Shown here one piece after another: positions 79 to 33,026 of a stretch of 38,536 nucleotides of DNA. This stretch comes from an uncultured Verrucomicrobiota bacterium (GTDB lineage Bacteria; Verrucomicrobiota; Kiritimatiellia; JAAZAB01). Position numbers and translations under genes: made by a program. How positions within the stretch are numbered: the first letter of the stretch is position 1; each line of letters opens with the position of its first letter. The stretch is taken from positions 1 to 38,536 of the forward strand of contig CAYWJE010000002.1 of the NCBI GenBank assembly GCA_964458525.1, written 5' to 3'. The notes under the pieces are model-generated. The model was not told the DNA's origin. It worked only from the letters and a program-made list of their open reading frames with translations, and ran no database searches.

Positions 79-1062
79 ATGACTGAGAATTCAAAACCCG
101 CGCGGGGCGCCGTGCGGGCAAGGCTTGTTTATTCCGAATGGGAAGTGAACCTCGCGAGGTTCGTGGCCTTGCGGGCTATAACTTTTATCGGAATGCTCGC
201 CGCGCTGCTCTTCCTGTTCATCGTGGGGGCAGAGTCGGCCGAGTTATTCTTCTACTTCGTCATTGTCCTCGCCTGGTTCGCCGGCAGTTTCCTGATAGAG
301 GCTCTCGTGGTAGCGGTCGGGAGAACGCTCAAACTGCGCTGCGCGCTCTTCGCGATGGCGGACCTGTACTTGATGCTTTCCCTCTTCTCCAATGTCGGGG
401 GCGCGATGCTTCCGGCCGTCAGCGCCTTTGCCGGCTATGTTCTGCTTGCTTCGGTATCATGCGGCCTGCTTGTCGGTGTGCTGTCGGCCGCTATCGGGAT
501 TATTGCATTTGTCCAGGGTTACATGGTTAATACCGATGTTGGCTCCGACACCCTGATTTTCACGGCCTTCATCGCCGTCGCGGCGCTCGCGTGCGCTGCT
601 CTGTGGAAGTCTGGAGTGCTTCATCCATCGTCCGGGAAGGACGACGGTTTTCTGGATGGCGCCGAAGCCACCAGGTTGTCGAAAGAAAACGAGGAGCTTG
701 GCGCGACCGTCTCGGCCATGCAGGAACAGCTTCTAAAGATCACAAAGGAGCGCGACGACGCCATGCTTCGCCTGGACAATAAAGGTACGGAGGACAATGG
801 TGAAACGGCGGGTTCCGAACCGCCCGCCGAAGAACAGCCGCCTCAACAGGAGCCGACGGACGACAGCACCGCGGATGAGAATGCGACGGCGCCGGAAGAG
901 CAGCCCGCAGCCGAAGAGGCGCCTGAACCCGCAGTGCCGGAAGAAGAAACGCCGCCCGTAGAGGCAAGAGCCGAGACCGAACCTTTGGAAACCCCTGTTA
1001 TGGAGACAGTTGAGCCGGAAGCGGCCGCGCCGGATACGCCGGCAAAGGAGACATCGCCTTGA
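79..1062 (+). CDS. Polytopic membrane protein (putative sensor/input module) with a coiled-coil segment and a Pro/Glu-rich acidic tail
   Basis: ATG at 79. The first ~190 aa are 5-6 hydrophobic helices (FVALRAITFIGMLAALLFLFIV, FFYFVIVLAWFAGSFLIEALVV, LLVGVLSAAIGIIAFV). A heptad-like stretch follows (LSKENEELGATVSAMQEQLLKITKERDDAMLRL), then ~100 aa of P/E/A/T low complexity. Stop TGA 1060-1062 overlaps the next ORF. Confidence 0.6.
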   Translation: MTENSKPARGAVRARLVYSEWEVNLARFVALRAITFIGMLAALLFLFIVGAESAELFFYFVIVLAWFAGSFLIEALVVAVGRTLKLRCALFAMADLYLMLSLFSNVGGAMLPAVSAFAGYVLLASVSCGLLVGVLSAAIGIIAFVQGYMVNTDVGSDTLIFTAFIAVAALACAALWKSGVLHPSSGKDDGFLDGAEATRLSKENEELGATVSAMQEQLLKITKERDDAMLRLDNKGTEDNGETAGSEPPAEEQPPQQEPTDDSTADENATAPEEQPAAEEAPEPAVPEEETPPVEARAETEPLETPVMETVEPEAAAPDTPAKETSP

Positions 1063-1736
1063 ACATGGACGAAAAGGACCTCGCGCGAATGAATTCCGTC
1101 CTGCGGCACACCCTTCGCAATTTCGCGTCTGGAATCAAAACGGCAATGTCAATCCTGTCTTCCGAATGCGAGAACTTTCTTCCGTCCCGCTCAATGGAAT
1201 ATTTTCCACTGATCGCGAATGAATGCAACCGCCTTGACCTGATCACAAAAAGAATGAATCTCATATTCGACCCGGTCCAGCTTGGCGGCGGTGAGGCGGC
1301 CGGAGCGATTCTTGAAAAACTCACGGCTGGCGTTCGCAAGGATTTTCCCACGGCCGCGATATCCTTGAACGTGGATGATGCGAGTCTCGGCATTATCGTG
1401 CGGGGCTCCGATGCGATTCTTGCCGCGCTGCGCGAGGCCGCAGTGAATGCAATAGAGGCGGATGTCCGCAAGGAGGCGCTTATTTCCTGCGGCCAGCGTG
1501 AAGGGTTCGTCTTGTTTCGCGTCGAGGACCGCGGCCCGGGCGTGCCAGCCGGGGATATCGGGAATATCTTCCAGGCTTTTTTCACAACCCGCAGCAGCCA
1601 TATCGGAATCGGGCTGACCATAGCGCGGCGAATGATGGAGGCAGTGGGCGGCACGGCCTCGGCATACGAAAACGCGGGCGGCGGGTTTGCAATCGAGCTG
1701 GCGGCGCCGGGAGCGGACTCCTCCGCCATACGGTGA
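1059..1736 (+). CDS. Histidine kinase catalytic core (DHp + HATPase_c) with no transmembrane or sensor domain
   Basis: H-box RHTLRNF lies close to the N-terminus. N-box AVNAIEA, G1 VEDRGPGVP, F-box IFQAFFTT and G2 GIGLTIARR are all present. There is no hydrophobic segment. TTG 1059 overlaps the upstream stop (TTGA); the first ATG is at 1065. Confidence 0.8.
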   Translation: MNMDEKDLARMNSVLRHTLRNFASGIKTAMSILSSECENFLPSRSMEYFPLIANECNRLDLITKRMNLIFDPVQLGGGEAAGAILEKLTAGVRKDFPTAAISLNVDDASLGIIVRGSDAILAALREAAVNAIEADVRKEALISCGQREGFVLFRVEDRGPGVPAGDIGNIFQAFFTTRSSHIGIGLTIARRMMEAVGGTASAYENAGGGFAIELAAPGADSSAIR

Positions 1737-1757
1737 ATGTTTTAAGGAGCAATATAT

Positions 1758-3158
1758 ATGACCGAACTGGAAATACTGCTGATAGAAGATGACGATCTTC
1801 AGAGAAAAGCCCTTTGCGACGTGTTGACGCGCAAGGGGCACGGCGTGCAATCGTCCAATTGCCTCGCCGCCGCGGACGAGATGATTGGGAAACAGGAATT
1901 CGACCTCGTGCTGCTCGATATGCACTTGCCCGACGGGAAAGGCCTGGATTTCCTGTCGAGACACAGGAAATCCGACTCGGACTGCGTATTCGTGCTGATA
2001 ACCGCCTTTGCCAACCTTGAGGATGCCGTAAACGCCATCAAACTAGGCGCCTACGATTATCTCTCCAAGCCGTACGAAGATGAGCATATAGACAAGATCG
2101 TCAGGAACGTGGCCGAAAACGTGGCGCTCGCGAAGCGTGTTCAGTCCCTCAGCCGGATGACCTCAACACTGAACCAGGAGGTATGGCAGTTCGACAACAT
2201 GATTGGAACCGATGCCCTGAAGGACATATTCGAAAAAGCCCAGCGCGTGGCGAGCTTCTCCGACAACACATCACTTCTGATACTCGGCGAGAGCGGCACC
2301 GGCAAGGGCATGCTGGCGAAGGCGATTCACCGCTTGAGCAACCGGGCCGACAAACCTTTCGTTGACATCAATTGCTCCGCCATCCCCGCCCAGTTAATAG
2401 AAAGCGAGATCTTCGGATATGAAAAGGGCGCCTTCACCGACGCGAAGAACCGGAAATCGGGTCTGCTGGAAGTCGCGGACGGCGGCACGGTGTTCCTTGA
2501 TGAAATCGGCGATATGGACGTGAACCTGCAGAGCAAGCTTCTAAAGGTCATCGAGGATAAAGAATTTCGCCGGCTTGGAAGTCCGCGCACCACGAAAGTG
2601 GACGTGCGCATAATTGCCGCGACAAATCGTGATCTTCAGAAGGCCGTCAAGGACGGAACATTCCGCGAGGACCTGTATTATCGGCTTTCCGTTGTTCCAA
2701 TAGAGCTCCCTCCGCTTCGCGAGCACAAGAGCAGCATCTCTCCGCTCTCGGAGCACTACCTGCGCGTTCTCGGCAAGGAAATGAACCGTTCGTTCAAGGG
2801 CTTTACCGCCGCGGCTATGGATGCAATGATGAACTACTCATGGCCGGGAAATGTCCGTGAACTGCGCAATGCCATAGAGCGCAGTATCATCCTGGCCGCC
2901 GGCGATCAAATTGATGCGCAGTGGCTTGGCCTGCCCGACGGAAAATCGCGGGTTTCCGAACCGGTTACGGATCATGACACTGTTACTACCAATATCACCA
3001 ATGAGATTGAGCCCATGAGCCTCGCGGAATGCGAGAAGCGGTTGATAACCTCCGTCCTGAAAGCCGCCGAAGGCAATAAGAATAAGGCTGCGGAGATTCT
3101 CAATATTCACCGCACCACTCTATATAAGAAGATAGAGGAGTACGGGATAAAGGTGTAG
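1758..3158 (+). CDS. Sigma54-dependent response regulator (REC + AAA+ + Fis-type HTH; NtrC family)
   Basis: REC domain (ILLIEDDD, DLVLLDMHLPDGKG, KLGAYDYLSKP). AAA+ domain with Walker A GESGTGKG, sigma54-contact loop GAFTDA and Walker B VFLDEIGDM. C-terminal HTH NKNKAAEILNIHRTTLYKKI. AAGGAG RBS sits upstream of ATG 1758. Confidence 0.9.
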   Translation: MTELEILLIEDDDLQRKALCDVLTRKGHGVQSSNCLAAADEMIGKQEFDLVLLDMHLPDGKGLDFLSRHRKSDSDCVFVLITAFANLEDAVNAIKLGAYDYLSKPYEDEHIDKIVRNVAENVALAKRVQSLSRMTSTLNQEVWQFDNMIGTDALKDIFEKAQRVASFSDNTSLLILGESGTGKGMLAKAIHRLSNRADKPFVDINCSAIPAQLIESEIFGYEKGAFTDAKNRKSGLLEVADGGTVFLDEIGDMDVNLQSKLLKVIEDKEFRRLGSPRTTKVDVRIIAATNRDLQKAVKDGTFREDLYYRLSVVPIELPPLREHKSSISPLSEHYLRVLGKEMNRSFKGFTAAAMDAMMNYSWPGNVRELRNAIERSIILAAGDQIDAQWLGLPDGKSRVSEPVTDHDTVTTNITNEIEPMSLAECEKRLITSVLKAAEGNKNKAAEILNIHRTTLYKKIEEYGIKV

Positions 3159-3256: not shown

Positions 3257-3273
3257 TGGCACGCGCACTGCTT
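3257..3273 (+). promoter_or_regulatory. Candidate sigma54 (-24/-12) promoter TGGCACGCGCACTGCTT
   Basis: Exact TGGCAC at 3257-3262. GG (3258-59) and GC (3270-71) have the canonical GG-N10-GC spacing. It lies in the intergenic gap directly after a sigma54 activator gene. Caveat: the predicted start site falls only ~5 nt before ATG 3288. Confidence 0.5.
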
Positions 3274-3287
3274 CCATCCGGTAAGGT

Positions 3288-4139
3288 ATGAGCTCAATAC
3301 TGAAATTACGTTTCCTCTTTTTCTTGATTGCGTGTGTTTTCGTTCTTCTTTTCCGTTGGGATTCATGTATGGCGCAGTTGATTGACGATGCGCCGCATGA
3401 ACTTCCGGCTGATGTCTATGATCCGGAGAAAGACGAAAAGACAGATACAGGCGCATATCCCGCAAAGACGAACAAACCCCCAGCCACCCCGGCCGTTTCG
3501 ATCGAGTCGGAACCTCTTGTCGCCACGGAACCGCGAAAAGATGTTGTAATATCCGTCAAGACACCTGCTGCCACTCAACTGGACACTGAAGACGGGGAAT
3601 ACAAGGCTTTCACAAATCGAGTGAACTCCATCAGGAATTCAATTCACAAAGACTTGTCAGAAGAGTCTTCTCATGGCGGCAGTTTGGCCGGAATGGGAAA
3701 ACTGCAGGAACTGGAAAGGAAGAAGTTTGAGAACAACAGCCTGCGAATCGAAATAGGCAAAAGGGATGAGAAGATAAATGAGCTGCTGGGAATGCTCGCC
3801 GAGGCGATAGGTTTTATCGAGCGGCAGAATGATCTGGTGAAAACGGTGAAGGAGAAGAAGTTGCTGCTGGCGGATCAGATCCTGAAACTGGAAGGTAAGC
3901 TCGATACGCACAAGAAGACCCTTGATCTGCTCAGGCTGGGTGATTTCGAGTACTACGAAGTCAAGGCAAACGACACGTGCGGGTCTATTGCCGCCAATCC
4001 CCTCATCTACAACGATGCATCCAAGGAACAGTATATAAGGCAGGCTAACCGGGACCATGTTGAAGACCTTGACGCGCTTGTTCCTGGGCAGATGCTGATA
4101 ATACCACGTTTCCCGGCGAGCGGCCGCTATGAGTTCTGA
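3288..4139 (+). CDS. Signal-anchored or secreted coiled-coil protein with a C-terminal LysM peptidoglycan-binding domain
   Basis: Hydrophobic N-terminus LKLRFLFFLIACVFVLLF. Long heptad region (LQELERKKFENNSLRIEIGKRDEKINELL...LLLADQILKLEGKLDTHKK). LysM-like C-terminus YYEVKANDTCGSIAANPLIY...LVPGQMLIIP. Confidence 0.7.
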   Translation: MSSILKLRFLFFLIACVFVLLFRWDSCMAQLIDDAPHELPADVYDPEKDEKTDTGAYPAKTNKPPATPAVSIESEPLVATEPRKDVVISVKTPAATQLDTEDGEYKAFTNRVNSIRNSIHKDLSEESSHGGSLAGMGKLQELERKKFENNSLRIEIGKRDEKINELLGMLAEAIGFIERQNDLVKTVKEKKLLLADQILKLEGKLDTHKKTLDLLRLGDFEYYEVKANDTCGSIAANPLIYNDASKEQYIRQANRDHVEDLDALVPGQMLIIPRFPASGRYEF

Positions 4140-4932
4140 AAAAGACACGAGTATAACTGTTCTCGTGGCGGAGGATAACCCCCTCGCGCTGCTGACCGTT
4201 CGCGTGTGCCTGGAGGATATGGGTTGTCTCGTCAGCGAAGCTTCCAGCTGCCGTGAAGCCGTTGAGCATTGGGAGTCGGGCAGGTTCGATCTCGTGATCA
4301 TGGATTACAGGCTGCCCGACGGACTTGGGACCGATGTTATTCGTGAAATGCGCGAGGGAGGACGCAATGATCCTGTGATCTGCCTGACCGCCGAGACGGA
4401 AAATATTTCGGACGAGCAGCGCGCAAAGCTCGGTATACGAGCTGCGCTGAACAAGCCGCTCGACCTGTCGGCGTTGAGGAACGAGATCGAAAAGGCGCGC
4501 GGCGAGGTCCGTCCGGGAGCCCCTGTGCCGGCCGGCGGAAGCCAGGCAGATAAAGAATGCCGGACGATCGGGAAGTTCACTGTTTTCAAGTTTCCCGGCG
4601 CACCGGAAAACGGATCGCTCGAGGATATGGAATGCGCGAGCGGCGGCGAGGACTGGGTGGCAATGGACATGAAAAACGTGAAGCATCTTAATGACATCGC
4701 GATTTCAGCGCTCACTCGAATCGCGGAGCGGTACGCGGATCGCGGCGGCAGGTTCTGTCTGGCCGGGGTTTCCGCGCCTCTACGCCGGCAGCTATCCGAC
4801 CTGCGGGTTGACCGGAAGCTTGATATTTTTAGCGATGTGCAGGCGCTCGGGTTCCTTGGAAGAAGACTTTTCTCCAACATGGAGCGCAGCGCGGTGCTGG
4901 AAAGCGTGATAAAGGGAAAGGTGAATACTTGA
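4129..4932 (+). CDS. Response-regulator receiver fused to a STAS (anti-sigma-factor-antagonist-like) domain
   Basis: REC domain: ITVLVAEDNP, acceptor context DLVIMDYRLPDGLG, LNKPLD. The C-terminal ~110 aa resemble STAS/SpoIIAA (FTVFKFPG...VAMDMKNVKHLNDIAISALTRIAERYADRGGRFCLAGVSAPLRRQL). ATG 4129 overlaps the upstream gene by 11 nt. Confidence 0.75.
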   Translation: MSSEKDTSITVLVAEDNPLALLTVRVCLEDMGCLVSEASSCREAVEHWESGRFDLVIMDYRLPDGLGTDVIREMREGGRNDPVICLTAETENISDEQRAKLGIRAALNKPLDLSALRNEIEKARGEVRPGAPVPAGGSQADKECRTIGKFTVFKFPGAPENGSLEDMECASGGEDWVAMDMKNVKHLNDIAISALTRIAERYADRGGRFCLAGVSAPLRRQLSDLRVDRKLDIFSDVQALGFLGRRLFSNMERSAVLESVIKGKVNT

Positions 4933-4950
4933 ATCGTCAGGTGAACAGAT

Positions 4951-5040
4951 CGGCGGGACAGGGCTGTCCCGCCCTACCATATCGAACCCCCGGTAGGGCC
5001 GCACAGCCTGTGCGGCCATCGAATTTCGAACAGCAGTTAC
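4951..5040. repeat. Palindromic intergenic repeat element (family A), single copy of three nested hairpins
   Basis: GGCGGGACAGGGCTGTCCCGCC hairpin, then CCCTACC-N13-GGTAGGG hairpin, then GGCCGCACAGCCTGTGCGGCC hairpin, then tail TCGAATTTCGAACAGCAGTTAC. The same architecture and near-identical modules recur at 20703-20885. Confidence 0.75.
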
Positions 5041-5053
5041 AAAGGAAGCGGTA

Positions 5054-7471
5054 ATGGCTGAAGAAGTCCAGGCTGAAAAACCCGGATCGGATCCGTCCGC
5101 GGAGACTTCCGGATCAGGCGGCTCCCTGCTGGAGAAGTGGCAGAGATGGCGGCTCGCAAAGCAGGCCGCCCTCTCGCAGGCCGGCGGCAAGGCCGGCATA
5201 ATCTATACGGTGATAACTGCGGCGACTGCGACATTTGCCGTGGCCACGATCCTCCTGGCCGTATTTTTCAGACCCGTCTACCTGGATTTGCGTCAACAAT
5301 ACGAGAACAGGCACGAGACTTTCGCGAAGAAATGCATTGAACAGGCAAAGAGCATCAATGAGGACACGACAAACGTCGCCGAACTGAACCGCGCATTCAG
5401 ATATCTGCGACTCGCGTTTGATAACGCGCGTGAGCCCGACACCCGGAACGAGGCATCTCTTGTAATGGGCGAATATGTTCTCGCCCGTGCCCGGCAGGAC
5501 CCCACTCACCACGCGATCGCGGCCAGGCAGTATCTCTGGGCCGTGCTCGACGTGGAAACCAGGCCCGAAAATTGCATACGCGCGTACAAGGCCCTGATTG
5601 CCGCCAACTACCTGATGAAGGATTTCAACGGATTACAGGATGCCTGCAAAAAAGCTTTAGAGCTGATCACGGACAACGACGAGAGAAGCCGCATCCTGTT
5701 GCTTCAGATTGACCTCTGCCTGGAGAAGGGAACCTGGACTGAATTGCAACAGCTGCTAGCCCAGGCCGGTCCCCTGCGAAACAATCCGCTCTGGCATAAC
5801 GAGTTCACGCTGCGCGAGACCATGGGCAACGAACAGGTTCTCCTGCGGAACAACTGGTTCGATGAGTGGAAGGAGGATAAATCGCGCTTGGCTTCAGAAT
5901 CCAATCCGCTCAAGGACGCGGCGGACGCGGACAAAGCGCTTCGCGCGGCGCTTCTTGAGCAGACTCTTCTGCAATTCCAGGACATGGCCGAATCCGGCCC
6001 GGCGCTTCTGGCCGCCGAAGCGTTTTTCAGGACAGGGCGTCTCTATTTCCACGAGGGTTTGTATGAGCGCGCGCGAATCGCCTTCGGCGATTTTTTGCGC
6101 CTCGAACCGGTCATTCACCAGGCCGACACTCTGCTCATGATGACGAAAACAGCGCGAAAGCTCGGCCGCATGCCGGAAGCCGAGGAGATGATCTCGACCT
6201 TTCTTCTTCAGTTCCCGTGGGGAACGGCAGCGGAGAATGAATTCATCGCGGTTGTGGACGAGGCTATTCTGCAGGGACGCCTGGAGCAGGCGCTGAAGAT
6301 GATCGAAAACTATTCCAGGCTACCGACCGCGAAGAGCACCTTGTCGGAGCTGCTTTGCAAGGCCGGGGAGCTTGCCACGTCCCTCGGACGGTATGAACAG
6401 GCCACGGATTATTTTGAGAGAGTCGTCACTCTCGACACGAGAAACGACCTGGTTGTCACGGCTATGCTCGCGCTGGTGAACATCAAGCTCGAATTGAACG
6501 ATCTTGACGATGCGCGCGAATGGCTTCTCACCTATCTCAACAGGTTTCCCTTCGAGGTGAAACAGGGTGATGCCCTTTTCGCGCTTATCGACATTGATGT
6601 CCGGTGCCACGCCGCGATGGCCGATATCCTGAATGTGGCCGTCACAGCCGTGAACGAATGCCCGGAAGACCCGCGCACGGGCGCGGCGCTTACCCTCGTT
6701 GCTCGCGAACTTGAAGATACGGGACTCTTCGCTCTTGCGGCGGAGCAGTATAACAAGGCTGTGCTGCTGCACTATGTGCAGAAGACAAATAACCCCGAGC
6801 AAGCCGACGATGCCGCGGCGTTCCGGGCCATGCTCGGAAACGCGCGCTGTCTCATGAAGCTTCCGGACCGCCGGCACGAGGCCGGGCAGATACTGCGCAA
6901 GCTCTGCTCGGACACCGCGCCGGGCCCGCTCCGCTCGGAAGCCCTGTATCTCTGGGCAAATCTCGCGCTTTCGCAGGACCAGAGGACCGAGGCCAGGCGC
7001 CGCTTCCTGCTCATCGGGGAGGATGAATCCTCGCCGGAGACCAGGGCGCGCGCCTCCGTGCAGCTCGCGCTGCTGGACCTGGAGGATTCGGGCGATACCG
7101 GCGAGGCTGTTGCCCGGATCGAGACGGCGCTCAATGACCTCGATCCGTCGGCACGCCCGGAGATAGCGCGCTCAGCCTGGCAGGAAGCCTTCGATCTGCT
7201 GGCGCGATTGCGGGACGTGGACGGAATGCAGCGCGTATTCGGCGAAGCCGTCAAAAACGGGGGGCTGGACCCCGAAGTCTTGTCAACCCTCAATTACCGG
7301 CTTGGAAGCATGATACTTGCAGAGAAAGGTGTTCCGGAGTTCGTCGCCAGGATGGAAAAGAACAACGGAGTACTGCTCGCCAACAAGTTGGAGCCAAGCG
7401 CGGATATCCTTGACCTTATCGAACGCGCGCGGAATATCGAGACGCAGAAGACGACCGTTGGAAAACTTTAG
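5054..7471 (+). CDS. Membrane-anchored TPR-repeat protein (805 aa)
   Basis: AAAGGAAG RBS upstream. One TM helix near residue 55-80 (IIYTVITAATATFAVATILLAVFF). About 720 aa of repeated helical-pair units with TPR-like A/L/Y spacing follow (RAYKALIAANYLMKDFNGLQDACKKALEL; AEAFFRTGRLYFHEGLYERARIAFGDFLRLEP; LGRYEQATDYFERVVTLD). Confidence 0.75.
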   Translation: MAEEVQAEKPGSDPSAETSGSGGSLLEKWQRWRLAKQAALSQAGGKAGIIYTVITAATATFAVATILLAVFFRPVYLDLRQQYENRHETFAKKCIEQAKSINEDTTNVAELNRAFRYLRLAFDNAREPDTRNEASLVMGEYVLARARQDPTHHAIAARQYLWAVLDVETRPENCIRAYKALIAANYLMKDFNGLQDACKKALELITDNDERSRILLLQIDLCLEKGTWTELQQLLAQAGPLRNNPLWHNEFTLRETMGNEQVLLRNNWFDEWKEDKSRLASESNPLKDAADADKALRAALLEQTLLQFQDMAESGPALLAAEAFFRTGRLYFHEGLYERARIAFGDFLRLEPVIHQADTLLMMTKTARKLGRMPEAEEMISTFLLQFPWGTAAENEFIAVVDEAILQGRLEQALKMIENYSRLPTAKSTLSELLCKAGELATSLGRYEQATDYFERVVTLDTRNDLVVTAMLALVNIKLELNDLDDAREWLLTYLNRFPFEVKQGDALFALIDIDVRCHAAMADILNVAVTAVNECPEDPRTGAALTLVARELEDTGLFALAAEQYNKAVLLHYVQKTNNPEQADDAAAFRAMLGNARCLMKLPDRRHEAGQILRKLCSDTAPGPLRSEALYLWANLALSQDQRTEARRRFLLIGEDESSPETRARASVQLALLDLEDSGDTGEAVARIETALNDLDPSARPEIARSAWQEAFDLLARLRDVDGMQRVFGEAVKNGGLDPEVLSTLNYRLGSMILAEKGVPEFVARMEKNNGVLLANKLEPSADILDLIERARNIETQKTTVGKL

Positions 7472-7488
7472 AACGCGGGAGATCCGGC

Positions 7489-7896
7489 ATGCAGATGTCT
7501 GAACAATACCAGGATGAAGAGAAGATCCTCGCCTCGATGGTCAAGAGCAGGGAATGCTGTCGGCAGGCCGGGAAGGCGCTGGCGGTGGCGCGTGCGGCGG
7601 CGGAACAGTCCGGCGAAGCTGGCGGGAATGTCGAACAGATGGCCGTGGCCGACAGAGCGATAACGCAGATGCTTTCACACCTTCAAAAGGTGCCGCTGAA
7701 AATGGCCGACGCAATGGGCTCAAACGAGTCGAAGGAATACGCCGCCCGGCTCCTTCTGGAAATCAGCGAACTGCTCGAGAAAGCCATGATCATGGAGCGG
7801 GAAACAAGGGATATCATCGGCTCCGTTCCCGCTCCGGCCGCAGCGCAGCGAACGCGGCGTGCGGCGCGGGCATATTCAAAGGCAGAAACAGTATGA
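7489..7896 (+). CDS. Hypothetical small helical protein (135 aa), translationally coupled to the downstream kinase
   Basis: GGGAGA RBS 8-13 nt upstream of ATG 7489. Its stop TGA 7894-7896 overlaps ATG 7893 of the kinase (ATGA). No motif was recognised. It is coherent with the operon and has a non-repetitive helical composition. Confidence 0.5.
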   Translation: MQMSEQYQDEEKILASMVKSRECCRQAGKALAVARAAAEQSGEAGGNVEQMAVADRAITQMLSHLQKVPLKMADAMGSNESKEYAARLLLEISELLEKAMIMERETRDIIGSVPAPAAAQRTRRAARAYSKAETV

Positions 7897-9131
7897 CGCA
7901 GCAAGCGACAGCAGAGAACATCGCCGACGTGATCTTGAAGATCAAGAGCGCGTTCGACACATTTGAATCGCAGAGCGGCGTCCTGCAAACTTCCTATGAC
8001 GCGCTTAAGCGCAATCTCGCCGAATCGAACAGGCAGCTCAGCTCGAAAAATCAGGCGCTGTCCGACAAGGTGCGGGAGCTTCAGCAGATGTCAACGCGTC
8101 TCCAGTGCATCCTGGGCAGCATGACGGACAGTGTGCTGGTGGTGGATGACAACCTCAAAGTCGAGAGATGCAATTCGTCCGCCGAGAGCCTGCTCGGTCT
8201 GCCGCAATTCGATATTGTGGGCAGAAACTACGATGAAATTGCGAACGGACTGGGAAACGCCGACCTCATAAGAATGGTCATCGAGGACGGCAGGTCCCTG
8301 CTTGACCAGGAGCGGCGCAGCATGCGCGGCGATGGCGAGGAAATCGTGGTGCTCGCCAGCGTGGCGCCCATCCGCTCGCCGCAGGGCCCCATGCTCGGGG
8401 CGATCGAGGTGCTCAGGGACGTTACGGAACTGCGCAGGCTCGAGGAGAAGGTAGCCTGCCAGAAACGCATGGCCGCGCTCGGCGAAATGGCGGCCAGTGT
8501 GGCCCATGAGATCCGCAATCCCCTGGGAACGATAGAGGGCTTTGCGAGCCTGTTGAAGCGCGACCTCGAAGCAATGCCCGAACACTCCCGCCTCGCCACG
8601 AAGATCGTGGAGGGCGTGCAGAATCTCAACTACGTCATCACGAGCCTGCTCACCTATGCCAGGCCGATGCCGCTCTCGTGCGAGGAATTCGACGCCGGCA
8701 GGTTCATTTCCGACTTGAGCGACGTGCTGGGCAGGAATTCGGCGGGTCAGGGAGTGGCCCTTGAAATTGAGGCGCTCGTCCAGCCTTTCGCGTTGCGCGG
8801 CGACAAGCGTCAGCTTCGGCAGGTGATGATCAACCTGGGCCTTAATGCCATTGAGGCATGCTCAGCCGGGGGACACGTCCGCATCTCGGCTGCAAGGAGG
8901 GGAAAGACCGCCATGTTCGAAATCGAGGACGACGGCTGCGGGATAAGCAAGGCGGACAGGCAAAGGCTGTTTGACCCCTTCTTCACCCGCAAACAGGGCG
9001 GAACGGGTCTGGGTTTGTCGCTCTGCCACAAGATCGTGCTGTCGCACGCCGGAGAAATAGAGGTGGCCAGCGAGCCTGGCAGAAAAACGGTATTTAGGGT
9101 AATTCTTCCCGGAACGGTGGTGGCATCATGA
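7893..9131 (+). CDS. Cytoplasmic PAS-domain sensor histidine kinase (FlrB/FleS/FlgS-type flagellar kinase by context)
   Basis: N-terminal coiled coil, then a PAS-like segment (LQCILGSMTDSVLVVDDNLKVERCNSSAESLLGL). HisKA H-box VAHEIRNPLGTI, N-box MINLGLNAIEA, G1 IEDDGCGI, F-box FDPFFTRK, G2 GGTGLGLSLCHKIV. No TM segment. The start is set at ATG 7893 rather than the long ORF start 7554. Confidence 0.85.
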   Translation: MTQQATAENIADVILKIKSAFDTFESQSGVLQTSYDALKRNLAESNRQLSSKNQALSDKVRELQQMSTRLQCILGSMTDSVLVVDDNLKVERCNSSAESLLGLPQFDIVGRNYDEIANGLGNADLIRMVIEDGRSLLDQERRSMRGDGEEIVVLASVAPIRSPQGPMLGAIEVLRDVTELRRLEEKVACQKRMAALGEMAASVAHEIRNPLGTIEGFASLLKRDLEAMPEHSRLATKIVEGVQNLNYVITSLLTYARPMPLSCEEFDAGRFISDLSDVLGRNSAGQGVALEIEALVQPFALRGDKRQLRQVMINLGLNAIEACSAGGHVRISAARRGKTAMFEIEDDGCGISKADRQRLFDPFFTRKQGGTGLGLSLCHKIVLSHAGEIEVASEPGRKTVFRVILPGTVVAS

Positions 9132-10522
9132 TATCGAGCATAGAAACAGCGCTGGTGGTTGACGACGACGTGCTGATGAGGGAATTCATCATTGAAACAC
9201 TGAAACGCAACGGGCTCTCGGTGTTCGAGGCCGCCAACGGGCTCGACGCCAAGAGCCTGGCCGAGGAGCGCAGCTTCGATATCGCCTTCATTGACATGAA
9301 AATGCCGGGCATGGATGGGATGCAGTTTCTGAAGTTCCTCAAGGAAAGCGGGAATGACGCGCTTCCGGTGATGATCACCGCCTTTGGGACCGTGGAGCAG
9401 GCAGTTGATGCGATGAAAATCGGGGCCTACGACTTTCTCATGAAGCCGTTCTCACCCGACCAGGTTGAGATCATAATCAAGCGGGCCAGGGAGTTCGTAG
9501 GAATCCAGGCACGCAACGCATATCTCCAGGAAGAGCTGGGGTGGCAGCTTCCCCGCGGCAGACAGTTCATCGGGCAGTCGCCGCCCGTCCGCGCCCTTAT
9601 GGAAGCCATTCAGGAAGTGGCCGCATCATCGGCCACAGTGCTTGTTTCGGGCGAAAGCGGAACAGGTAAGGAGCTTGTCGCCCTCGCCATCCACGCGCTC
9701 AGCGGCAGGAAGGATGGCCCTTTTATTCGCATGAACTGCGCCGCGGTACCGAACGAGCTGATGGATAGCGAGATGTTTGGCCACGAAAAAGGCTCCTTCA
9801 CCAGTGCCATATCAAAGCGGATCGGCCGGTTCGAGCTGGCAAACGGCGGCACATTACTTCTCGACGAAATCAGCGAGCTGCACATAGGGCTGCAGGCCAA
9901 GCTGCTGCGGGTTCTACAGGAGCAGGAATTCGAACGCGTTGGCGGCGCGCGCACAATCAGGACCGACTGCCGCGTCATAGCCACCACCAACCGCAACCTG
10001 AAGGAATACGTCGAGACCGGAAAATTCCGGCAGGATCTCTTTTACAGGCTCAACGTGCTGCCGATAAACACACCGCCTCTGAGGGAACGCATCGAAGATA
10101 TCCCGATTCTCATCAACGCCTTTCTCGCAAAATCCGGGGCGCGCAAGACGGCAAACGCTTCTGAACTGAAGTTCTCGGGAGAGGCGATGAGCCTCCTTTG
10201 CGCCTATCCCTGGCCCGGGAACGTGCGTGAACTCGAGAACATGGTCGAACGGCTCACCGTCATGGGCAAGGGCCCCGTTTTCGGGCCTGATGCCCTGCCC
10301 GCCGAAATTCGCGGCGCCACCCCCATCGCGACAGTGCCGGCCCCGCCACAAAAACCGGAGACCCTGAACCTGGCCGAAATCGAGCGTGAAGCCATAATGC
10401 AGGCCCTCGGAATCACCGGTGGAAACAGGCAGAAAACATCGGATATTCTCGGAATAAGCGTGAGAACCCTGCGCAATAAGCTTAATCAGTACAAGCAGGA
10501 CGAGAATACCGGTGGCATGTGA
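9128..10522 (+). CDS. Sigma54-dependent response regulator (FlrC/FleR/FlgR-type by context)
   Basis: REC domain (ALVVDDDVLM, DIAFIDMKMPGMDG, KIGAYDFLMKP). AAA+ domain (GESGTGKE, GSFTSA loop, LLLDEISEL). Fis-type HTH (NRQKTSDILGISVRTLRNKL). ATGA overlap with the kinase; it sits immediately upstream of flgB. Confidence 0.9.
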   Translation: MISSIETALVVDDDVLMREFIIETLKRNGLSVFEAANGLDAKSLAEERSFDIAFIDMKMPGMDGMQFLKFLKESGNDALPVMITAFGTVEQAVDAMKIGAYDFLMKPFSPDQVEIIIKRAREFVGIQARNAYLQEELGWQLPRGRQFIGQSPPVRALMEAIQEVAASSATVLVSGESGTGKELVALAIHALSGRKDGPFIRMNCAAVPNELMDSEMFGHEKGSFTSAISKRIGRFELANGGTLLLDEISELHIGLQAKLLRVLQEQEFERVGGARTIRTDCRVIATTNRNLKEYVETGKFRQDLFYRLNVLPINTPPLRERIEDIPILINAFLAKSGARKTANASELKFSGEAMSLLCAYPWPGNVRELENMVERLTVMGKGPVFGPDALPAEIRGATPIATVPAPPQKPETLNLAEIEREAIMQALGITGGNRQKTSDILGISVRTLRNKLNQYKQDENTGGM

Positions 10523-10896
10523 AGTGCTTTCCTTATCCATTAGCCATGGATACATCAATACAGATGCTGCGCACGATAATGGACGGTTGCACTGCAAGAC
10601 ATCGCGTTCTTGCCAATAACCTCGCGAATGCCGAAACCCCCATGTTCAAGAGGCAGGATCTCAATTTCAAATCGGCCCTTGATCAGGCGTTAAACTCGAA
10701 AAATGAAGGCGGATTCAATGATGTCCAGTTTCAAATCAACACGGATACCAAGTCTCCGGCCTCCGCAAACGGCAATAACGTGTCAACCCAGGCTGAACTC
10801 GGCCTGATTCTCCAGAACAGCCTGCTGTACAATACCGCGACAACAGTTATATCTGACAAATTCACAAGATTGAAAAAAGCCATCAAGGGAGCTTGA
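10519..10896 (+). CDS. flgB: Flagellar basal-body rod protein FlgB
   Basis: Rod N-terminal motif RHRVLANNLANAETPMFKRQDL, typical size, and position before flgC. GTG 10519 overlaps the regulator stop (GTGA); an alternative ATG lies at 10546. Confidence 0.85.
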   Translation: MKCFPYPLAMDTSIQMLRTIMDGCTARHRVLANNLANAETPMFKRQDLNFKSALDQALNSKNEGGFNDVQFQINTDTKSPASANGNNVSTQAELGLILQNSLLYNTATTVISDKFTRLKKAIKGA

Positions 10897-10914
10897 CGGT
10901 TTTCGATGTGTTTG

Positions 10915-10930
10915 TGGCAGGAAAAATGCT
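10915..10930 (+). promoter_or_regulatory. Candidate sigma54 (-24/-12) promoter TGGCAGGAAAAATGCT
   Basis: GG 10916-17 and GC 10928-29 have GG-N10-GC spacing. It lies in the 80-bp flgB-flgC gap. The predicted start (~10941) leaves a ~36-nt leader containing the GAGGA RBS of flgC. Confidence 0.45.
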
Positions 10931-10976
10931 TCAAGGAACCTGTGAGGTTGATTCCGGGTAATAGGCGAGGACGAAT

Positions 10977-11414
10977 ATGCCATACGAAACATCATTGATT
11001 CCCGCAATTGGAGTGAGCGCAAGTGGGCTGGACGCGCAAAACCGCCGCATGGAGGTTATTGCGAACAACGTTGCCAATGCCAACACCACCCGTGGCGTTG
11101 ATGGTAAAGTATTCCGCAGAAAAGAGGTAGTTTTTGCCGCCAAGATGCAACAGGCAATGGGGTTGCCCGAAACGGATTCGAGCCGTGGCGGAGTCAAGGT
11201 GGACAGCATAATAGAAGACGACAGCGCTCTTAAGACGATCTTTAAGCCGGGTCATCCGGATGCCGATGCCGACGGCTATGTGCTTATGCCCAACGTGGAG
11301 CCAATTGAGGAAATGATTGACATGATGAATGCCACTCGCGCGTACGAGGCCAACCTGGCGGCAATCAAGGCCGCCAAATCCATGGCGGCGCAGGCCTTGC
11401 AGATAGGGAGATAG
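10977..11414 (+). CDS. flgC: Flagellar basal-body rod protein FlgC
   Basis: SASGLDAQNRRMEVIANNVANANTTR N-terminal rod motif and C-terminal EEMIDMMNATRAYEANLAAIKAAKSMAAQALQI, both typical of FlgC. Confidence 0.9.
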   Translation: MPYETSLIPAIGVSASGLDAQNRRMEVIANNVANANTTRGVDGKVFRRKEVVFAAKMQQAMGLPETDSSRGGVKVDSIIEDDSALKTIFKPGHPDADADGYVLMPNVEPIEEMIDMMNATRAYEANLAAIKAAKSMAAQALQIGR

Positions 11415-11416
11415 CC

Positions 11417-11725
11417 ATGATTAACACTGATTTCAGAATAGACGGCGCTGGCGGTGAGATCGCCCCGTACCTAAAGAATAATGTTCCGGAGAAGAACGAC
11501 TCGGATGTCAGCTTCAAAGATGTACTCAAAGGCCTCGTCAGCCAGGTGGACACCCTTCAGAAAAGCGCCGATGCCTCCATAGAAGGGCTCGTTACCGGCG
11601 AGACCACCGATATCCACGACGTGACGATCAAGCTCGAGGAAGCGGGAGTCGCTTTTGACCTGATGATGGAAGTCCGGAACAAGCTACTTGACGCTTACCA
11701 GCAGATTATAAAGATACAGTCATAG
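11417..11725 (+). CDS. fliE: Flagellar hook-basal body complex protein FliE
   Basis: 102 aa. C-terminal FliE-like segment IHDVTIKLEEAGVAFDLMMEVRNKLLDAYQQIIKIQ. Lies between flgC and fliF. GGGAGA RBS. Confidence 0.8.
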   Translation: MINTDFRIDGAGGEIAPYLKNNVPEKNDSDVSFKDVLKGLVSQVDTLQKSADASIEGLVTGETTDIHDVTIKLEEAGVAFDLMMEVRNKLLDAYQQIIKIQS

Positions 11726-16792: not shown

Positions 16793-17368
16793 ATGAAATT
16801 CATGTTTCTATTGGTATGCATTGTGTGCGCGGTGAGCATATCCGCGCTGTCGGTGATTTTTGCAATGGGCAAGGTGCCTTTTTCTGCACCGGTCGAACCG
16901 GTGGTCATCACCTATATTCCGATGAAGGCGCCGCTCACCGTCTTCTCGAGCCAGAAGGAGGTTATGGATGTCCTGATCAGCGACTTGCAGGAGCTTAAGT
17001 CCTCCTACGAAAGCAGGACCGCCGACCTGGCCGTCAGGGAGGAGAAACTTAAGATGATGGAGGACCTGAAGGAGCAGATGGCTTCACTCCAGAAAGGTTT
17101 TGATTCCGTGCTCGTGGAGGTCAAGGCGGCCGAACAGACGAATTTCAAAAGGCTGGCCGATATTTTCAGCAAGATGGATTCGGAGGACGCCGCCACGCTG
17201 CTGCAGAAGATGGAAGGCGACCGCGCCGCCATCATTCTCAACATGATCGGGGAACGACAGGCCGGCGCCATCATGAACGCCGCCGTTAAAAGTCCGGAAG
17301 GTTCCAAATCTGCAGTGGAATGGGCCGACGGCATCAGGAGACTCAAGGCGCAAGCGAGAGGAGGGTAG
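16793..17368 (+). CDS. Membrane-anchored MgtE_N-like flagellar protein (FlbB/YlxF type)
   Basis: N-terminal TM (FMFLLVCIVCAVSISALSVIFA), a coiled coil, then an MgtE-N-like segment (MDSEDAATLLQKMEGDRAAIILNMIGERQAGAIMNA). It occupies the same slot (fliJ to fliK) as ylxF in Bacillus and flbB in spirochaetes. Confidence 0.6.
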   Translation: MKFMFLLVCIVCAVSISALSVIFAMGKVPFSAPVEPVVITYIPMKAPLTVFSSQKEVMDVLISDLQELKSSYESRTADLAVREEKLKMMEDLKEQMASLQKGFDSVLVEVKAAEQTNFKRLADIFSKMDSEDAATLLQKMEGDRAAIILNMIGERQAGAIMNAAVKSPEGSKSAVEWADGIRRLKAQARGG

Positions 17369-21213: not shown

Positions 21214-21978
21214 ATGGATCTCGGGACAGTCATTGGTCTGATATTGGCATTTGCTCTCGTTCTTGGCGCCATCATGGTCGGCGGGGGCGCGGGGTTTTTC
21301 AACATCCCCTCGATCATGATCACGATAGGCGGGTCTTTTGCAGCCACGCTCATGAACTACCCGCTGCCCAAGATAGTGGGGGTCATGGGCGTCGTGCGCA
21401 AGGCGTTCACCGGCAAAGCCGTTGACTATCTGGCTCAGTACAACAGGATCAATGATTTTGCAACGCGCGCACGGCGCGACGGCATTCTGGCGCTCGAAGA
21501 TGATATTGACAATCTCGATGATCTCTTCCTTAAAAAAGGCATGCAGATGGCGGTTGACGGCAACCCGGCCGATGTGATCAGGCAGGTGCTAAACACTGAC
21601 ATCGAGACGATGCTCCAGCGCCACGTCACCGGGCAGAGCATTTTCAAGGCGCTCGGAAACTACGCGCCGGCCTTCGGAATGATAGGAACACTCATAGGAC
21701 TCGTTCAGATGCTCAGGCAGCTCGATGATCCCAGCACGATCGGCGCCGGCATGGCCGTTGCGCTTCTCACCACCCTCTACGGCGCGCTCGTAGCGAACCT
21801 TTTTGCCCTGCCCATGGCCGGCAAGCTGGAACAGCGCACAAACGAAGAACTGGCGCTTCGCAACATGGTTCTCGAGGGAATTCTCTCGATCCAGGAAGGC
21901 AACAGCCCGCGGGTGGTCCAGGAGAAACTGAAGAGCTTCCTCGCGCCCAGCGTGAGAAAGCAAACAGAAGAGACATGA
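21214..21978 (+). CDS. motA: Flagellar stator protein MotA
   Basis: Four TM segments, a cytoplasmic loop with charged residues, and the MotA/TolQ/ExbB C-terminal signature GAGMAVALLTTLYGALVANLFALPMAGKL. Confidence 0.9.
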   Translation: MDLGTVIGLILAFALVLGAIMVGGGAGFFNIPSIMITIGGSFAATLMNYPLPKIVGVMGVVRKAFTGKAVDYLAQYNRINDFATRARRDGILALEDDIDNLDDLFLKKGMQMAVDGNPADVIRQVLNTDIETMLQRHVTGQSIFKALGNYAPAFGMIGTLIGLVQMLRQLDDPSTIGAGMAVALLTTLYGALVANLFALPMAGKLEQRTNEELALRNMVLEGILSIQEGNSPRVVQEKLKSFLAPSVRKQTEET

Positions 21979-21985
21979 GCATGCA

Positions 21986-22828
21986 ATGGCAAAATCGCTA
22001 AAGACCAAGGAGGTGCTGTGTCCCCAGTGGATGATGACCTTCGGTGATTTCATATCGCTCCTGGTCACGTTCTTCGTGATGCTTATAGCCTTCTCAACCT
22101 TCGAGGAGGCAAAGCTAGCCGCGATGATCGGAAGCCTGAAAGGCGCGCTCGGAGTAACCCAGCAGCCGGGCATTGAAATGCAAATACGGGATCCTGCTCA
22201 CTTTGAGCAGATCCGCGGAATTCTGGATGAGCCGAAATGGCTTTCCATTGATGAGCTCTCTGTTGTGGTGCCGGACTTCCAGATGGCAATGAAGAGATTC
22301 GGCGAGCCAATGTTGAGTTCCGAGAGATACGTTACTGTTGCAATGCTTGATGAGGGCATGGCCATTGTCATCTCCGTCAAGCCCCTGTTCGCGCCGGGAA
22401 CCTCATGTCTCCTGCCGGGAAATGAAAGACTCCTTTCCGAAATCGGAGCTTTTGTCGAGGCCCTTGCAAATGAGGCGCGGGTGATAGGGGTGGTTCATGC
22501 GTCCACCCCTGTGTGCTGCAAGACCGCTACCTCTGTCTGGGGGCTCGCCATCGAGAGGGCGATGGCCCTTCAGGAAGGACTGCTTCTGAAATGCGGATTG
22601 CCCAGGGAAAGGTTCGGGGTCGGGGCGAAGGTGGAGAATTCAGTGTCCGACCCGCGCTCAGACCAGGCGGGGCTGCGTCATCTGATGATGAGGGCAGGAC
22701 CACGACTGCAAATTCCAGTAGATGATCCGGTTTTAGCCTCAGAGCATATGGAGATAATCATAATGGGTCGCCAGGCATTCGACGAAATGTCGGCCGAAGA
22801 GGTCATCGTGCGCGATAAGTGGGAATGA
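21986..22828 (+). CDS. motB: Flagellar stator protein MotB (channel Asp present; divergent OmpA-like C-terminus)
   Basis: N-terminal PQWMMTFGDFISLLVTFFVMLIAFS carries the invariant Asp. Weak OmpA-like segment SVWGLAIERAMALQEGLLLKCGLPRERFGVGA. Directly follows motA. Confidence 0.8.
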   Translation: MAKSLKTKEVLCPQWMMTFGDFISLLVTFFVMLIAFSTFEEAKLAAMIGSLKGALGVTQQPGIEMQIRDPAHFEQIRGILDEPKWLSIDELSVVVPDFQMAMKRFGEPMLSSERYVTVAMLDEGMAIVISVKPLFAPGTSCLLPGNERLLSEIGAFVEALANEARVIGVVHASTPVCCKTATSVWGLAIERAMALQEGLLLKCGLPRERFGVGAKVENSVSDPRSDQAGLRHLMMRAGPRLQIPVDDPVLASEHMEIIIMGRQAFDEMSAEEVIVRDKWE

Positions 22829-22850
22829 TTGTGCGGAGAGGGGAAAGGGC

Positions 22851-26948: not shown

Positions 26949-26971
26949 CCATTTTCCAGGTTAACAGCACA

Positions 26972-26986
26972 CCGCATGCCATGCGG
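26972..26986 (-). terminator. Weak hairpin immediately after the giant-gene stop codon
   Basis: CCGCATG-C-CATGCGG palindrome abuts stop codon TAG (complement of 26987-26989). On the - strand it is followed by UGUGCUGUU, which is only a weak U-tract. Confidence 0.25.
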
Positions 26987-32548: not shown

Positions 32549-32774
32549 CCTTTGATACGCTTTACTCAAATTTATGCCCGCCTGCTTGTTTTAGCCGTAA
32601 TCTGGAACCTGAATCCTGCACGAGTCCGTGCAATATCCAGATCATAGAATAATACACCATTTTTCCGTTTCTGTCGCCTTTTTTTTCGTCCGAATGGGTG
32701 TGAAGCAAATTTGTTGATTCCTTTATAAAGCTCTAATAAAACCTGCGCGGACGACGTGGAAGTCGGCCCTCCAG

Positions 32775-32975: not shown

Positions 32976-33026
32976 GACGCAGGGTTTTGCAAGAGCCTCC
33001 TATGTTTGTTTAAAGTTGTTTTCCTG

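Follow-up and report, generated by a model that had tools for sequence, protein, structure and literature searches.

A LysM coiled-coil protein and a membrane-anchored TPR solenoid as candidate periplasmic motor parts encoded in a sigma-54 flagellar operon of uncultured Verrucomicrobiota

We describe here two proteins encoded ahead of the flagellar genes in a 38,536-nucleotide stretch of DNA from an uncultured Verrucomicrobiota bacterium (contig CAYWJE010000002.1 of assembly GCA_964458525.1; hereafter the window). One is a coiled coil ending in a LysM domain (LysM-cc), and the other is an 805-aa tetratricopeptide repeat (TPR) protein with a single N-terminal transmembrane (TM) segment. Both keep the same gene order in the window and in 16 independent contigs (17 loci), as far as the contigs extend, and all 17 TPR loci, as well as one further locus carrying LysM-cc only (L015), are flagellar. 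As judged from their sequences and contexts, both are good candidates for lineage-specific periplasmic motor parts, and we consider it about an even call that together they form a lineage-specific periplasmic accessory structure of the flagellar motor. A previous reading of the same DNA, made from the sequence only, had pointed to this pair, and open reading frames (ORFs), Pfam and AlphaFold2 (AF2) models agree that both proteins exist as it described them, their genes lying between two sigma-54-dependent regulators. What it overlooked is a third gene. ORF listing and domain scans resolve the interval 3288-7471 into three co-directional genes, the middle one encoding a response regulator with receiver and STAS domains (REC-STAS), and this signalling gene bears on the interpretation of the whole locus.

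Gene order, distribution and promoters

The conserved order runs LysM-cc, REC-STAS, TPR, a small protein of 135 aa in the window (p135), a PAS histidine kinase and a sigma-54-dependent response regulator, followed by flgB, flgC, fliE, fliF and fliG. The contigs derive from Lentisphaerae, Victivallales, Kiritimatiellae, metagenome-assembled genomes labelled "Verrucomicrobiota", and unassigned metagenome contigs. Word-indexed searches with the TPR protein, either as a single sequence or as a profile, were swamped by generic TPR proteins and returned one true relative; the family was recovered instead via the neighbours of LysM-cc, a genome scan and an exhaustive hidden Markov model (HMM) search. 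LysM-cc has 30 detectable homologues, and seven of the eight whose contexts were fetched show the conserved order, with a TPR protein of ~750 aa and a ~130-aa protein. The scan of species-representative genomes, which combined the TPR alignment with two peptide patterns of limited sensitivity, gave seven loci, with L013 and L003 lying on one and the same contig. By their titles, one is Lentisphaerae GWF2_57_35, and two each are from Victivallales, Kiritimatiellae and 'Verrucomicrobiota'. All of them have the same neighbours by tblastn and hhalign, as far as the contigs extend. The exhaustive HMM search of 1.84 billion representatives yielded 161 matches, 51 of them below 1e-30; by our own count about 75 of these clusters are full-length relatives of 724-805 aa, which makes for a small family, the rest being generic TPR proteins.

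The most divergent TPR subfamily matches the window profile with E-values of only ~1e-10 to 1e-16, and its metagenome loci were found with an 8-sequence subset of the alignment. All three encode a mini kinase, a sigma-54 response regulator, REC-STAS, TPR, the PAS kinase and a sigma-54 response regulator, and two of them reach flgB through fliG, LysM-cc being detected in those two. The sole deviation from the order is L015 (1-5728), which holds the most divergent LysM-cc homologue. There, the gene follows a sigma-54 response regulator with overlapping stop and start codons, and is convergent with HDOD, sigma-28-like and FlhG/MinD-like genes; this short contig has no REC-STAS or TPR gene. Among the loci examined, no homologue of either protein lies outside a flagellar neighbourhood. 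Homologues elsewhere would have counted against the earlier reading, and the pair belongs to flagellar loci as that reading suggested.

The four non-core genes (LysM-cc, REC-STAS, TPR and p135) are 55-67% identical to their counterparts in the closest relative, L001, versus 75-94% for the regulators and the core flagellar parts. Such faster evolution is typical of peripheral scaffold proteins. It could be argued that LysM-cc and TPR are general envelope proteins that share the locus by chance and have no flagellar function, as both are made of generic modules. We find this hardly credible: synteny is strict in 17 of 17 TPR loci despite FliF being only ~46-53% identical across the genomes carrying the module, the promoter is of the same sigma-54 type as that of flgB, and no non-flagellar instance was found.

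Cultured Kiritimatiella, Lentisphaera and Victivallis are recorded as having no flagellar genes (PMC11870540), and none of them is among the seven matches of our two-pattern scan. Flagellated Lentisphaerota and Kiritimatiellota appear in our data only as metagenome-assembled genomes, and the phylum-wide survey of E-rings and TPR spokes does not cover the motor of this lineage, since the cultured species listed in it all lack flagella. The operon is, to judge from its sequence and distribution, an 'early flagellar' operon specific to flagellated Lentisphaerota/Kiritimatiellota-type bacteria.

The promoters indicate how this operon may be expressed. The sequence ahead of LysM-cc (3257-3272) is the sole match in the window to the core sigma-54 consensus TGGCAC-N5-TTGC with at most one mismatch, and the window has four copies of the pattern TGGCAY-N6-TGCT, among them those ahead of LysM-cc and flgB, versus 0.24 expected, a number reached in none of 100 shuffles. 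All 11 homologous loci have the motif ahead of the LysM-cc start codon, at 28-31 nt in ten and at 54 nt in L009, as measured after correction of two over-extended gene calls (P0029 in L005 and P0016 in L017, whose called starts lie too far 5', so that the promoter falls inside the called ORF). All 11 have it ahead of flgB too, at a distance of 30-63 nt. A relaxed version gives 36 matches in 515 kb, both strands counted, and ~22 of them are at the LysM-cc and flgB positions. By sequence, the hallmarks of a sigma-54 promoter are present (GG at -24, GC at -12, fixed spacing, conserved position and two nearby genes for bacterial enhancer-binding proteins), while scans of the window for sigma-70 promoters and intrinsic terminators gave background level only.

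Several of the genes also overlap, by 11 nt between LysM-cc and REC-STAS and by ATGA at both the p135/kinase and the kinase/response regulator junctions, as given by the ORF coordinates. LysM-cc, REC-STAS, TPR, p135, the PAS kinase and the sigma-54 regulator (3288-10522) are therefore likely to form one sigma-54 operon. It had been proposed that the two envelope genes are co-transcribed with both flanking regulators; we would keep this for the downstream kinase and regulator only, because the operon has its own promoter at 3257-3272, downstream of the first regulator. That upstream regulator (1758-3158) probably acts as the top tier by switching on the 3257 promoter, and the operon's own sigma-54 regulator probably then switches on the flgB operon, which would amount to a three-tier sigma-54 cascade.

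Some details of the promoter regions deserve mention. The motifs lie so close to the starts (3257-3288 and 10513-10546 in the window; L001-L017) that, with the GC at -12, the mRNA would begin 1-5 nt before the LysM-cc ATG, and the operon transcript would be a near-leaderless sigma-54 mRNA. In GWF2_57_35 (L008), the sigma-54 16-mer is repeated identically ahead of REC-STAS (7479-7532 and 8991-9044), with ~800 nt extra between LysM-cc and REC-STAS, and the first eight codons of LysM-cc are near-identical in the second copy (MRITITSF / MRITTTSF). The window itself has an insert between REC-STAS and TPR (4933-5053) with two perfect GC-rich hairpins, no T-run and a minimum free energy of -47.5 kcal/mol (z -2.8). 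This insert is absent from L001, where the two genes overlap; it has no second copy in the window, and Rfam matched no known RNA family along the entire window, insert included.

Predicted LysM and TPR proteins

LysM-cc matches the Pfam LysM domain (PF01476) at residues 223-273 with 22.9 bits against a cutoff of 20.9. In its AF2 model, built on a 22-sequence alignment, a hydrophobic helix at the N-terminus (2-29) is joined by a disordered linker (31-92) to two further helices (93-126 and 138-217), and the beta-alpha-alpha-beta fold of LysM comes last. In Foldseek, this C-terminal domain superposes on the LysM domain of Kbp/YgaU at 1.2-1.5 Å, and many further LysM structures are matched with a root-mean-square deviation of 1.2-2.5 Å. 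By score and by modelled fold it is a LysM domain, for which peptidoglycan binding is predicted. Conserved among the homologues are the hydrophobic N-terminal segment and its AXA-like site, the coiled coil with 'RLxELERKA', and, at the other end, the LysM domain and tail. The extreme C-terminus, ...IIPRFPxSGRYEF-COOH, is nearly invariant in the family and extends beyond the LysM fold; its low-confidence modelling suggests that this tail is flexible. From the signal-like N-terminus and the extracytoplasmic type of domain, LysM-cc is predicted to be periplasmic. We also considered that it could be a lipoprotein, owing to a recurrent Cys near the signal peptide, and rejected this, since there is no consistent lipobox across 22 homologues and AXA-like sites for signal peptidase I are commoner.

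The TPR protein has a single hydrophobic segment at about residues 49-72 and matches Pfam TPR_8 with 35.7 bits (cutoff 25.7), in addition to several other TPR models. Its AF2 model, which rests on a 2-sequence alignment and has a predicted local distance difference test (pLDDT) score of 72, shows a single hydrophobic helix at the N-terminus and then ~36 helices in one unbroken all-alpha solenoid; DSSP finds no beta strand in this model, whose C-terminus is a helix (783-804). The hydrophobic segment is present in 47 of 52 full-length family members. The 15 residues before it contain on average 3.3 K+R and 0.4 D+E, and the 15 after it 2.5 K+R and 2.0 D+E, giving a net flank charge of +2.9 on the N side versus +0.5 on the C side. 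Of the two flanks, the N-side one is more positive in 30 members and less positive in 10, the other 7 showing no difference. Because of this positive-inside pattern and of the short, unconserved N-tails (3-60 residues), the TPR region is most probably periplasmic, held by an N-in signal anchor. Thus, for both proteins the predictions agree with the periplasmic location that had been suggested before, through their N-termini, the type of the LysM domain and the charges flanking the TPR anchor.

While the 52 TPR proteins share only ~25-35% identity overall, eight residues are invariant among them: E554, R598, R615, W634, Q643, E646, R649 and R650. A562, Y566 and G595 are at least 96% conserved, C599 94% and C618 75%. 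These invariant positions would form a specific polar surface, as they do not look like the TPR packing consensus, and the two cysteines might pair in a disulfide, in keeping with an oxidising environment.

A proposed accessory motor structure and the known systems

In each of the characterised systems that have been reviewed, an E-ring protein works with a TPR protein, namely PflA, MotC, MotK or FlcB (PMC13023049), and in Caulobacter CC_2058 is the predicted TPR partner (PMC13023049). MotK additionally carries a peptidoglycan-binding AMIN domain (PMC13023049, PMC11870540). The E-ring proteins of the FlgY/FlbB/MotE type are recognised by a C-terminal MgtE_N (ARM-like) head, a long helix, an N-terminal TM segment or signal peptide, and a fliJ/fliK neighbour (PMC13023049). 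The window encodes a candidate for such a protein (16793-17368), proposed on the grounds of its place between fliJ and fliK, its N-terminal TM segment and a sub-threshold MgtE_N match; it would be the likely partner of LysM-cc and TPR. This 191-aa protein is predicted to continue into a long helix and an MgtE_N-like head (23.6 bits versus a cutoff of 25.9, E 7.6e-5). It had been called FlbB-like; its position, its TM segment and the weak MgtE_N similarity support that, whereas the NCBIfam collar_FlbB model itself does not, with 12.5 bits against a cutoff of 110. By analogy, the E-ring candidate, the TPR solenoid and a separate peptidoglycan-binding protein would match the known functional pattern.

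How could such a structure be built? LysM-cc would be a soluble periplasmic coiled coil of ~12-17 nm, as estimated from helix length, that binds peptidoglycan via its LysM domain. The TPR protein would keep one N-terminal helix in the inner membrane and project its ~730-residue solenoid into the periplasm, where spokes or a rim of it may dock on the FlgY/FlbB-type E-ring and/or on the stator assembly of MotB and FliL, while LysM-cc would tie the accessory structure around the basal body to the cell wall. Docking would probably take place at the Arg/Glu/Trp patch of TPR 554-650. The clamping of C-terminal peptides is a classic function of TPR domains, and it is tempting to speculate that the ...GRYEF-COOH tail of LysM-cc, or another acidic partner, docks on this Arg-rich patch. 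REC-STAS, p135 and the PAS kinase with its sigma-54 response regulator would then constitute the next tier, switching on the flgB operon from the second promoter. In function, the analogues would be PflA/PflB, MotK with MotC and MotE, and the spirochaete collar. Our data show gene content, domain folds, predicted topology, promoters, strict synteny and lineage restriction; where in the motor the two proteins sit, what they bind and how they act on the stators we infer.

We favour a scaffold because of the flagellar linkage, the predicted export of LysM-cc and TPR, the length and character of the solenoid, the invariant patch for docking, the peptidoglycan anchor, the candidate E-ring gene and the fast evolution. 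Several observations weigh against it. Neither profile searches nor Foldseek gave homology or a specific fold match to any proven motor scaffold, and the AF2 model of the TPR protein (two sequences, pLDDT 72) lacks every beta element by which PflA and PflB are defined. The envelope genes are interleaved with signalling genes, which fits a sensory or checkpoint role equally well. In addition, proteins decorating a finished basal body would be expected later than in a tier above that of rod and hook, and no flagellated isolate of the lineage figures in the surveys consulted. As to the early expression, there are precedents in PflA/PflB-type proteins and in class II of Caulobacter. The proposal of a periplasmic motor scaffold is plausible, although the interleaved signalling genes, which the sequence-only reading missed, keep a regulatory explanation alive.

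The comparison with PflA and PflB illustrates both sides. The similarities include a large periplasmic TPR solenoid, of ~800 aa here versus 820 in PflB and 788 in PflA (PMC12222027, PMC11870540), a location among flagellar genes, and, as a candidate here, an E-ring (MgtE_N) gene in the same genome. PflB is defined by a TM motif and an antiparallel beta-pair of a mid-protein strand with C-terminal residues, and PflA by an N-terminal AMIN-like beta-sandwich plus a linker before 16-17 TPRs (PMC11870540). The TPR family is predicted, from sequence and model, to share with PflB the N-terminal TM motif followed by a periplasmic TPR array, but the 2-sequence model lacks both the beta-pair and the AMIN beta-sandwich, and Pfam gives no AMIN match. 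Moreover, there is here one TPR gene rather than a pair, the predicted peptidoglycan binding resides on a separate LysM coiled coil, and both genes are inside a sigma-54 regulatory operon. PflA and PflB have been speculated to derive from YbgF-like TPR proteins of the Tol-Pal system (PMC12222027, PMC11870540), and YbgF is also the best TPR-family match of our protein: the NCBIfam YbgF/CpoB model TIGR02795 gives 53.1 bits against a cutoff of 90.1, on residues 401-500 only (E 4.5e-14). The other sub-threshold NCBIfam matches are to PilW, BamD and PorW, which are also periplasmic TPR proteins.

This similarity to CpoB suggests another function, in which the TPR protein, acting like CpoB, and the LysM coiled coil, acting like EnvC/DipM, would recruit or activate a hydrolase that remodels peptidoglycan for rod passage, replacing or assisting FlgJ-type or SltF-type enzymes. 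Besides the YbgF/CpoB match, the TPR protein weakly matches the model of the Borrelia flagellar lytic transglycosylase BB0259, the coiled coil of LysM-cc weakly matches EnvC, and expression just ahead of the rod genes fits the timing. However, none of these scores reaches its family cutoff, and what they pick up is the similarity common to TPRs or coiled coils in general. Catalytic and LytM domains are missing from both proteins, and no hydrolase gene is linked in any locus, so we regard a remodelling adaptor as improbable.

The accessory scaffold also resembles MotK, which combines AMIN and TPR, and MotC, which together with MotE are required for stator function in Cereibacter sphaeroides and Sinorhizobium meliloti (PMC13023049, PMC10954123). 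The parallel lies in a periplasmic TPR protein, a peptidoglycan-binding module and a protein of the MotE/FlgY family, which in our locus are predicted parts. Compared by description, the system presented here differs in having LysM instead of AMIN, in placing it on a separate protein, and in a TPR protein that is about twice as long and membrane-anchored. With the spirochaete collar (FlbB, FlcA/FlcB/FlcC/FlcD), it shares the order of the flgB operon and a TM-anchored FlbB-like gene after fliJ, and some collar proteins are TPR-rich (PMC13023049). In contrast to the spirochaetes, nothing here indicates periplasmic flagella, and neither the TPR protein nor LysM-cc matches any NCBIfam or Pfam collar model, the 18 bits of the TPR protein to BB0259 (cutoff 234) being generic TPR similarity.

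FimV and HubP share with our proteins the peptidoglycan-binding LysM domain, and FimV also the TPR-like repeats, which raises the idea of a polar landmark whose LysM domain marks the pole and recruits flagellar placement factors; the divergent LysM-cc of L015, adjoining an flhG-like gene, would be compatible with it. FimV and HubP are nevertheless single polypeptides that combine periplasmic LysM and a TM segment with an extensive cytoplasmic region, while in our case LysM and TPR are on two polypeptides and both are predicted to be periplasmic. Pfam finds no FimV-type C-terminal motif, and there is no conserved cytoplasmic domain, the tail being unconserved, that could recruit partners of the ParA/MinD type. 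The analogy with FimV/HubP, also made from the sequence, fails therefore on architecture, and a positioning module seems to us very improbable.

Finally, structural and profile searches did not reveal any closer relative. A 6-sequence TPR profile searched against all PDB sequences (E≤1) returned designed and generic TPR proteins and CpoB, and no PflA or PflB chain or other flagellar scaffold. Foldseek of the TPR model against PDB gave only generic solenoids of low TM-score, eukaryotic ones first (SKI3, Ctr9, IFT-A, OGT), with the Campylobacter jejuni scaffold chain 9hmf_K at rank 34 (TM-score 0.22/0.23, 11% identity), matches too unspecific to speak for or against membership. Pfam and NCBIfam (E≤0.1) show no Sel1 (MotX) or OmpA (MotY) match in LysM-cc or TPR, the domains that would place them with MotX/MotY in a T-ring. 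Membership in PflA/PflB, FlcA, MotX/Y or FimV/HubP is thus not supported, and the kinship to these families that had been suggested for the pair reduces to TPR and LysM similarity of a generic kind.

About half of the flagellated species encode TPR proteins close to their flagellar clusters, and these have already been put forward as potential counterparts of PflA/PflB (PMC11870540). The general idea is hence not ours; what is new is this TPR family, its lineage, its LysM partner and their embedding in a regulatory operon. The locus provides a testable parts list for a motor of the PVC (Planctomycetes-Verrucomicrobia-Chlamydiae) type, with an E-ring candidate, a TPR solenoid, a separate LysM tether and two MotB paralogues. 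If they do form a scaffold, this would be an independent case of a TPR protein and a peptidoglycan-binding module around an E-ring, and would bear on the proposed antiquity of the spokes.

Signalling genes and the remainder of the window

The four genes that share the operon with LysM-cc and TPR are taken to encode signalling components. REC-STAS matches Pfam Response_reg (E 3.3e-21) and STAS (31.1 bits versus a cutoff of 22.6), and D16, D59 and K109-P110 are invariant in 9 orthologues, leaving the phospho-acceptor site intact. At the SpoIIAA-type phospho-serine position, the alignment, read by eye, has D, E or A, unconserved. Because a conserved Ser/Thr is lacking at that position, the STAS output is presumably controlled by the receiver domain of the same protein. 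There is no RsbW-type kinase, FlgM or sigma-28 gene within the operon. p135 is conserved in 11 aligned loci, with the motifs VKxRExCRQ and LLExAxIxERExR, and gives a tblastn match in most other loci, yet it has no match in Pfam, NCBIfam or PDB. The PAS kinase has an orthologue of 46-87% identity in each of the homologous loci long enough to reach it. REC-STAS, p135 and the PAS kinase contain no hydrophobic segments and are predicted to be cytoplasmic, and REC-STAS and p135 make an unusual regulatory pair.

Early sigma-54 operons that combine motor parts with the activator of the next tier exist elsewhere, as in fliF-flbD of Caulobacter and class II flrBC of Vibrio, and STAS proteins control flagellar gene expression in other bacteria, for example through the HsbA-FlgM partner switch of Pseudomonas. 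The operon resembles these cases in its sigma-54 cascade, in its mixed early content and in having a STAS protein within flagellar regulation. It differs in joining STAS to a receiver domain and, as read by eye, in lacking a conserved phospho-serine; p135 has no known counterpart.

These genes raise the question of whether LysM-cc and TPR serve a trans-envelope assembly checkpoint, in which they would sense or anchor in the periplasm and pass their state on to REC-STAS, p135 and the PAS kinase. They would sense the nascent MS-ring/E-ring or the local peptidoglycan and gate the phosphorylation of the sigma-54 response regulator, and thereby the flgB operon, in a licensing step resembling a partner switch rather than in a torque scaffold. 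The six genes keep their interleaved order in 17 loci under one sigma-54 promoter, three of their junctions overlap, the phospho-acceptor of REC-STAS is intact, p135 is a conserved orphan directly 5' of the kinase, and the precedent of HsbA-FlgM is another point for STAS control. On the other hand, the only cytoplasmic part of the TPR protein is its short unconserved tail, LysM-cc has none, the kinase is soluble, no TM signalling domain such as HAMP is present, and an 800-aa solenoid is oversized as a sensor. We consider this checkpoint, the main rival of the scaffold, rather unlikely. An apparent fusion of p135 to the kinase in L007 (13784-15457), which would have linked the two directly, was rejected, because the C-terminal part of p135 is in another frame; the REC-STAS gene of the same locus is split into two ORFs (10710-11517), and both oddities are frameshifts in an indel-prone assembly.

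The scaffold and the checkpoint are not mutually exclusive. We could speculate that LysM-cc, REC-STAS, the TM-anchored TPR protein and p135 form an undescribed trans-envelope licensing device, both motor scaffold and morphogenetic checkpoint. In that case, a peptidoglycan-anchored complex of LysM-cc and TPR would form at the nascent basal body, and the membrane anchor of the TPR protein would couple it to the receiver-controlled STAS switch and p135, gating the FlgS/FlgR-like pair. We give this combined device a slim chance. A checkpoint of either kind, if true, would be a new coupling of envelope assembly to the sigma-54 cascade.

The features of the operon and its surroundings are listed in Table 1.

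Table 1. Genes, promoter motifs and other features of the window discussed in the text
Feature	Coordinates	Strand	Basis or remark
Polytopic membrane protein with Pro/Glu-rich tail	79-1062		
Mini histidine kinase, sensor-less	1059-1736	+	Pfam
Upstream REC/sigma-54-AAA+/HTH_8 regulator	1758-3158	+	Pfam
Sigma-54-type promoter, TGGCAC-N6-TGCT	3257-3272	+	31 nt before the LysM-cc ATG
LysM-cc, 283 aa, predicted exported coiled coil with C-terminal LysM	3288-4139	+	Pfam, AF2, Foldseek
REC-STAS response regulator, 267 aa, predicted cytoplasmic	4129-4932	+	Pfam
Structured intergenic insert, 121 nt, window-specific	4933-5053	+	Minimum free energy, comparison with L001
TPR solenoid, 805 aa, TM-anchored, predicted periplasmic	5054-7471	+	Pfam, AF2
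p135, 135 aa, small conserved helical protein	7489-7896	+	Conservation; no named family
Soluble PAS histidine kinase, FlgS/FlrB-like	7893-9131	+	Pfam PAS, HisKA, HATPase_c
Sigma-54-dependent response regulator, FlgR/FlrC-like, last gene of the operon	9128-10522	+	Pfam REC, Sigma54_activat, HTH_8
Second sigma-54-type promoter, ahead of flgB	10513-10528	+	Motif scan
Candidate FlgY/FlbB/MotE-type (E-ring) protein, 191 aa	16793-17368	+	Between fliJ and fliK

Upstream of the operon, the pair of kinase and sigma-54 response regulator (1059-3158) adjoins the module in 11 of the 13 loci that extend 5' of LysM-cc. In L017, six opposite-strand genes lie between the upstream regulator and LysM-cc, and the pair is absent in L003, L008 and L016. 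In the window, the pair forms an upstream unit with the polytopic membrane protein, which was detected only in L001 and L014.

Downstream of the second sigma-54 regulator follow flgB, flgC, fliE, fliF, fliG, fliH, fliI, fliJ, the 191-aa gene, fliK and flgD, and the block continues with flgE/G, motA, two motB paralogues, fliL, fliM and fliN, an order of the Bacillus/spirochaete type. The single motA and the two motB genes occupy 21214-23549. The first motB (21986-22828) matches only Pfam MotB_plug, with weak OmpA-like similarity, and the second (22851-23549) matches both MotB_plug and OmpA.

After the flagellar block, the minus strand encodes a secreted-looking protein of 1860 aa (26987-32569) with beta-propeller/PQQ-like, fn3 and FG-GAP repeats. 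Upstream of this gene are ~780 nt of non-coding DNA (32570-33387) with a sigma-54-type motif at 33353-33368 (minus strand), and another motif of this type lies just downstream of it (26966-26981, minus strand).

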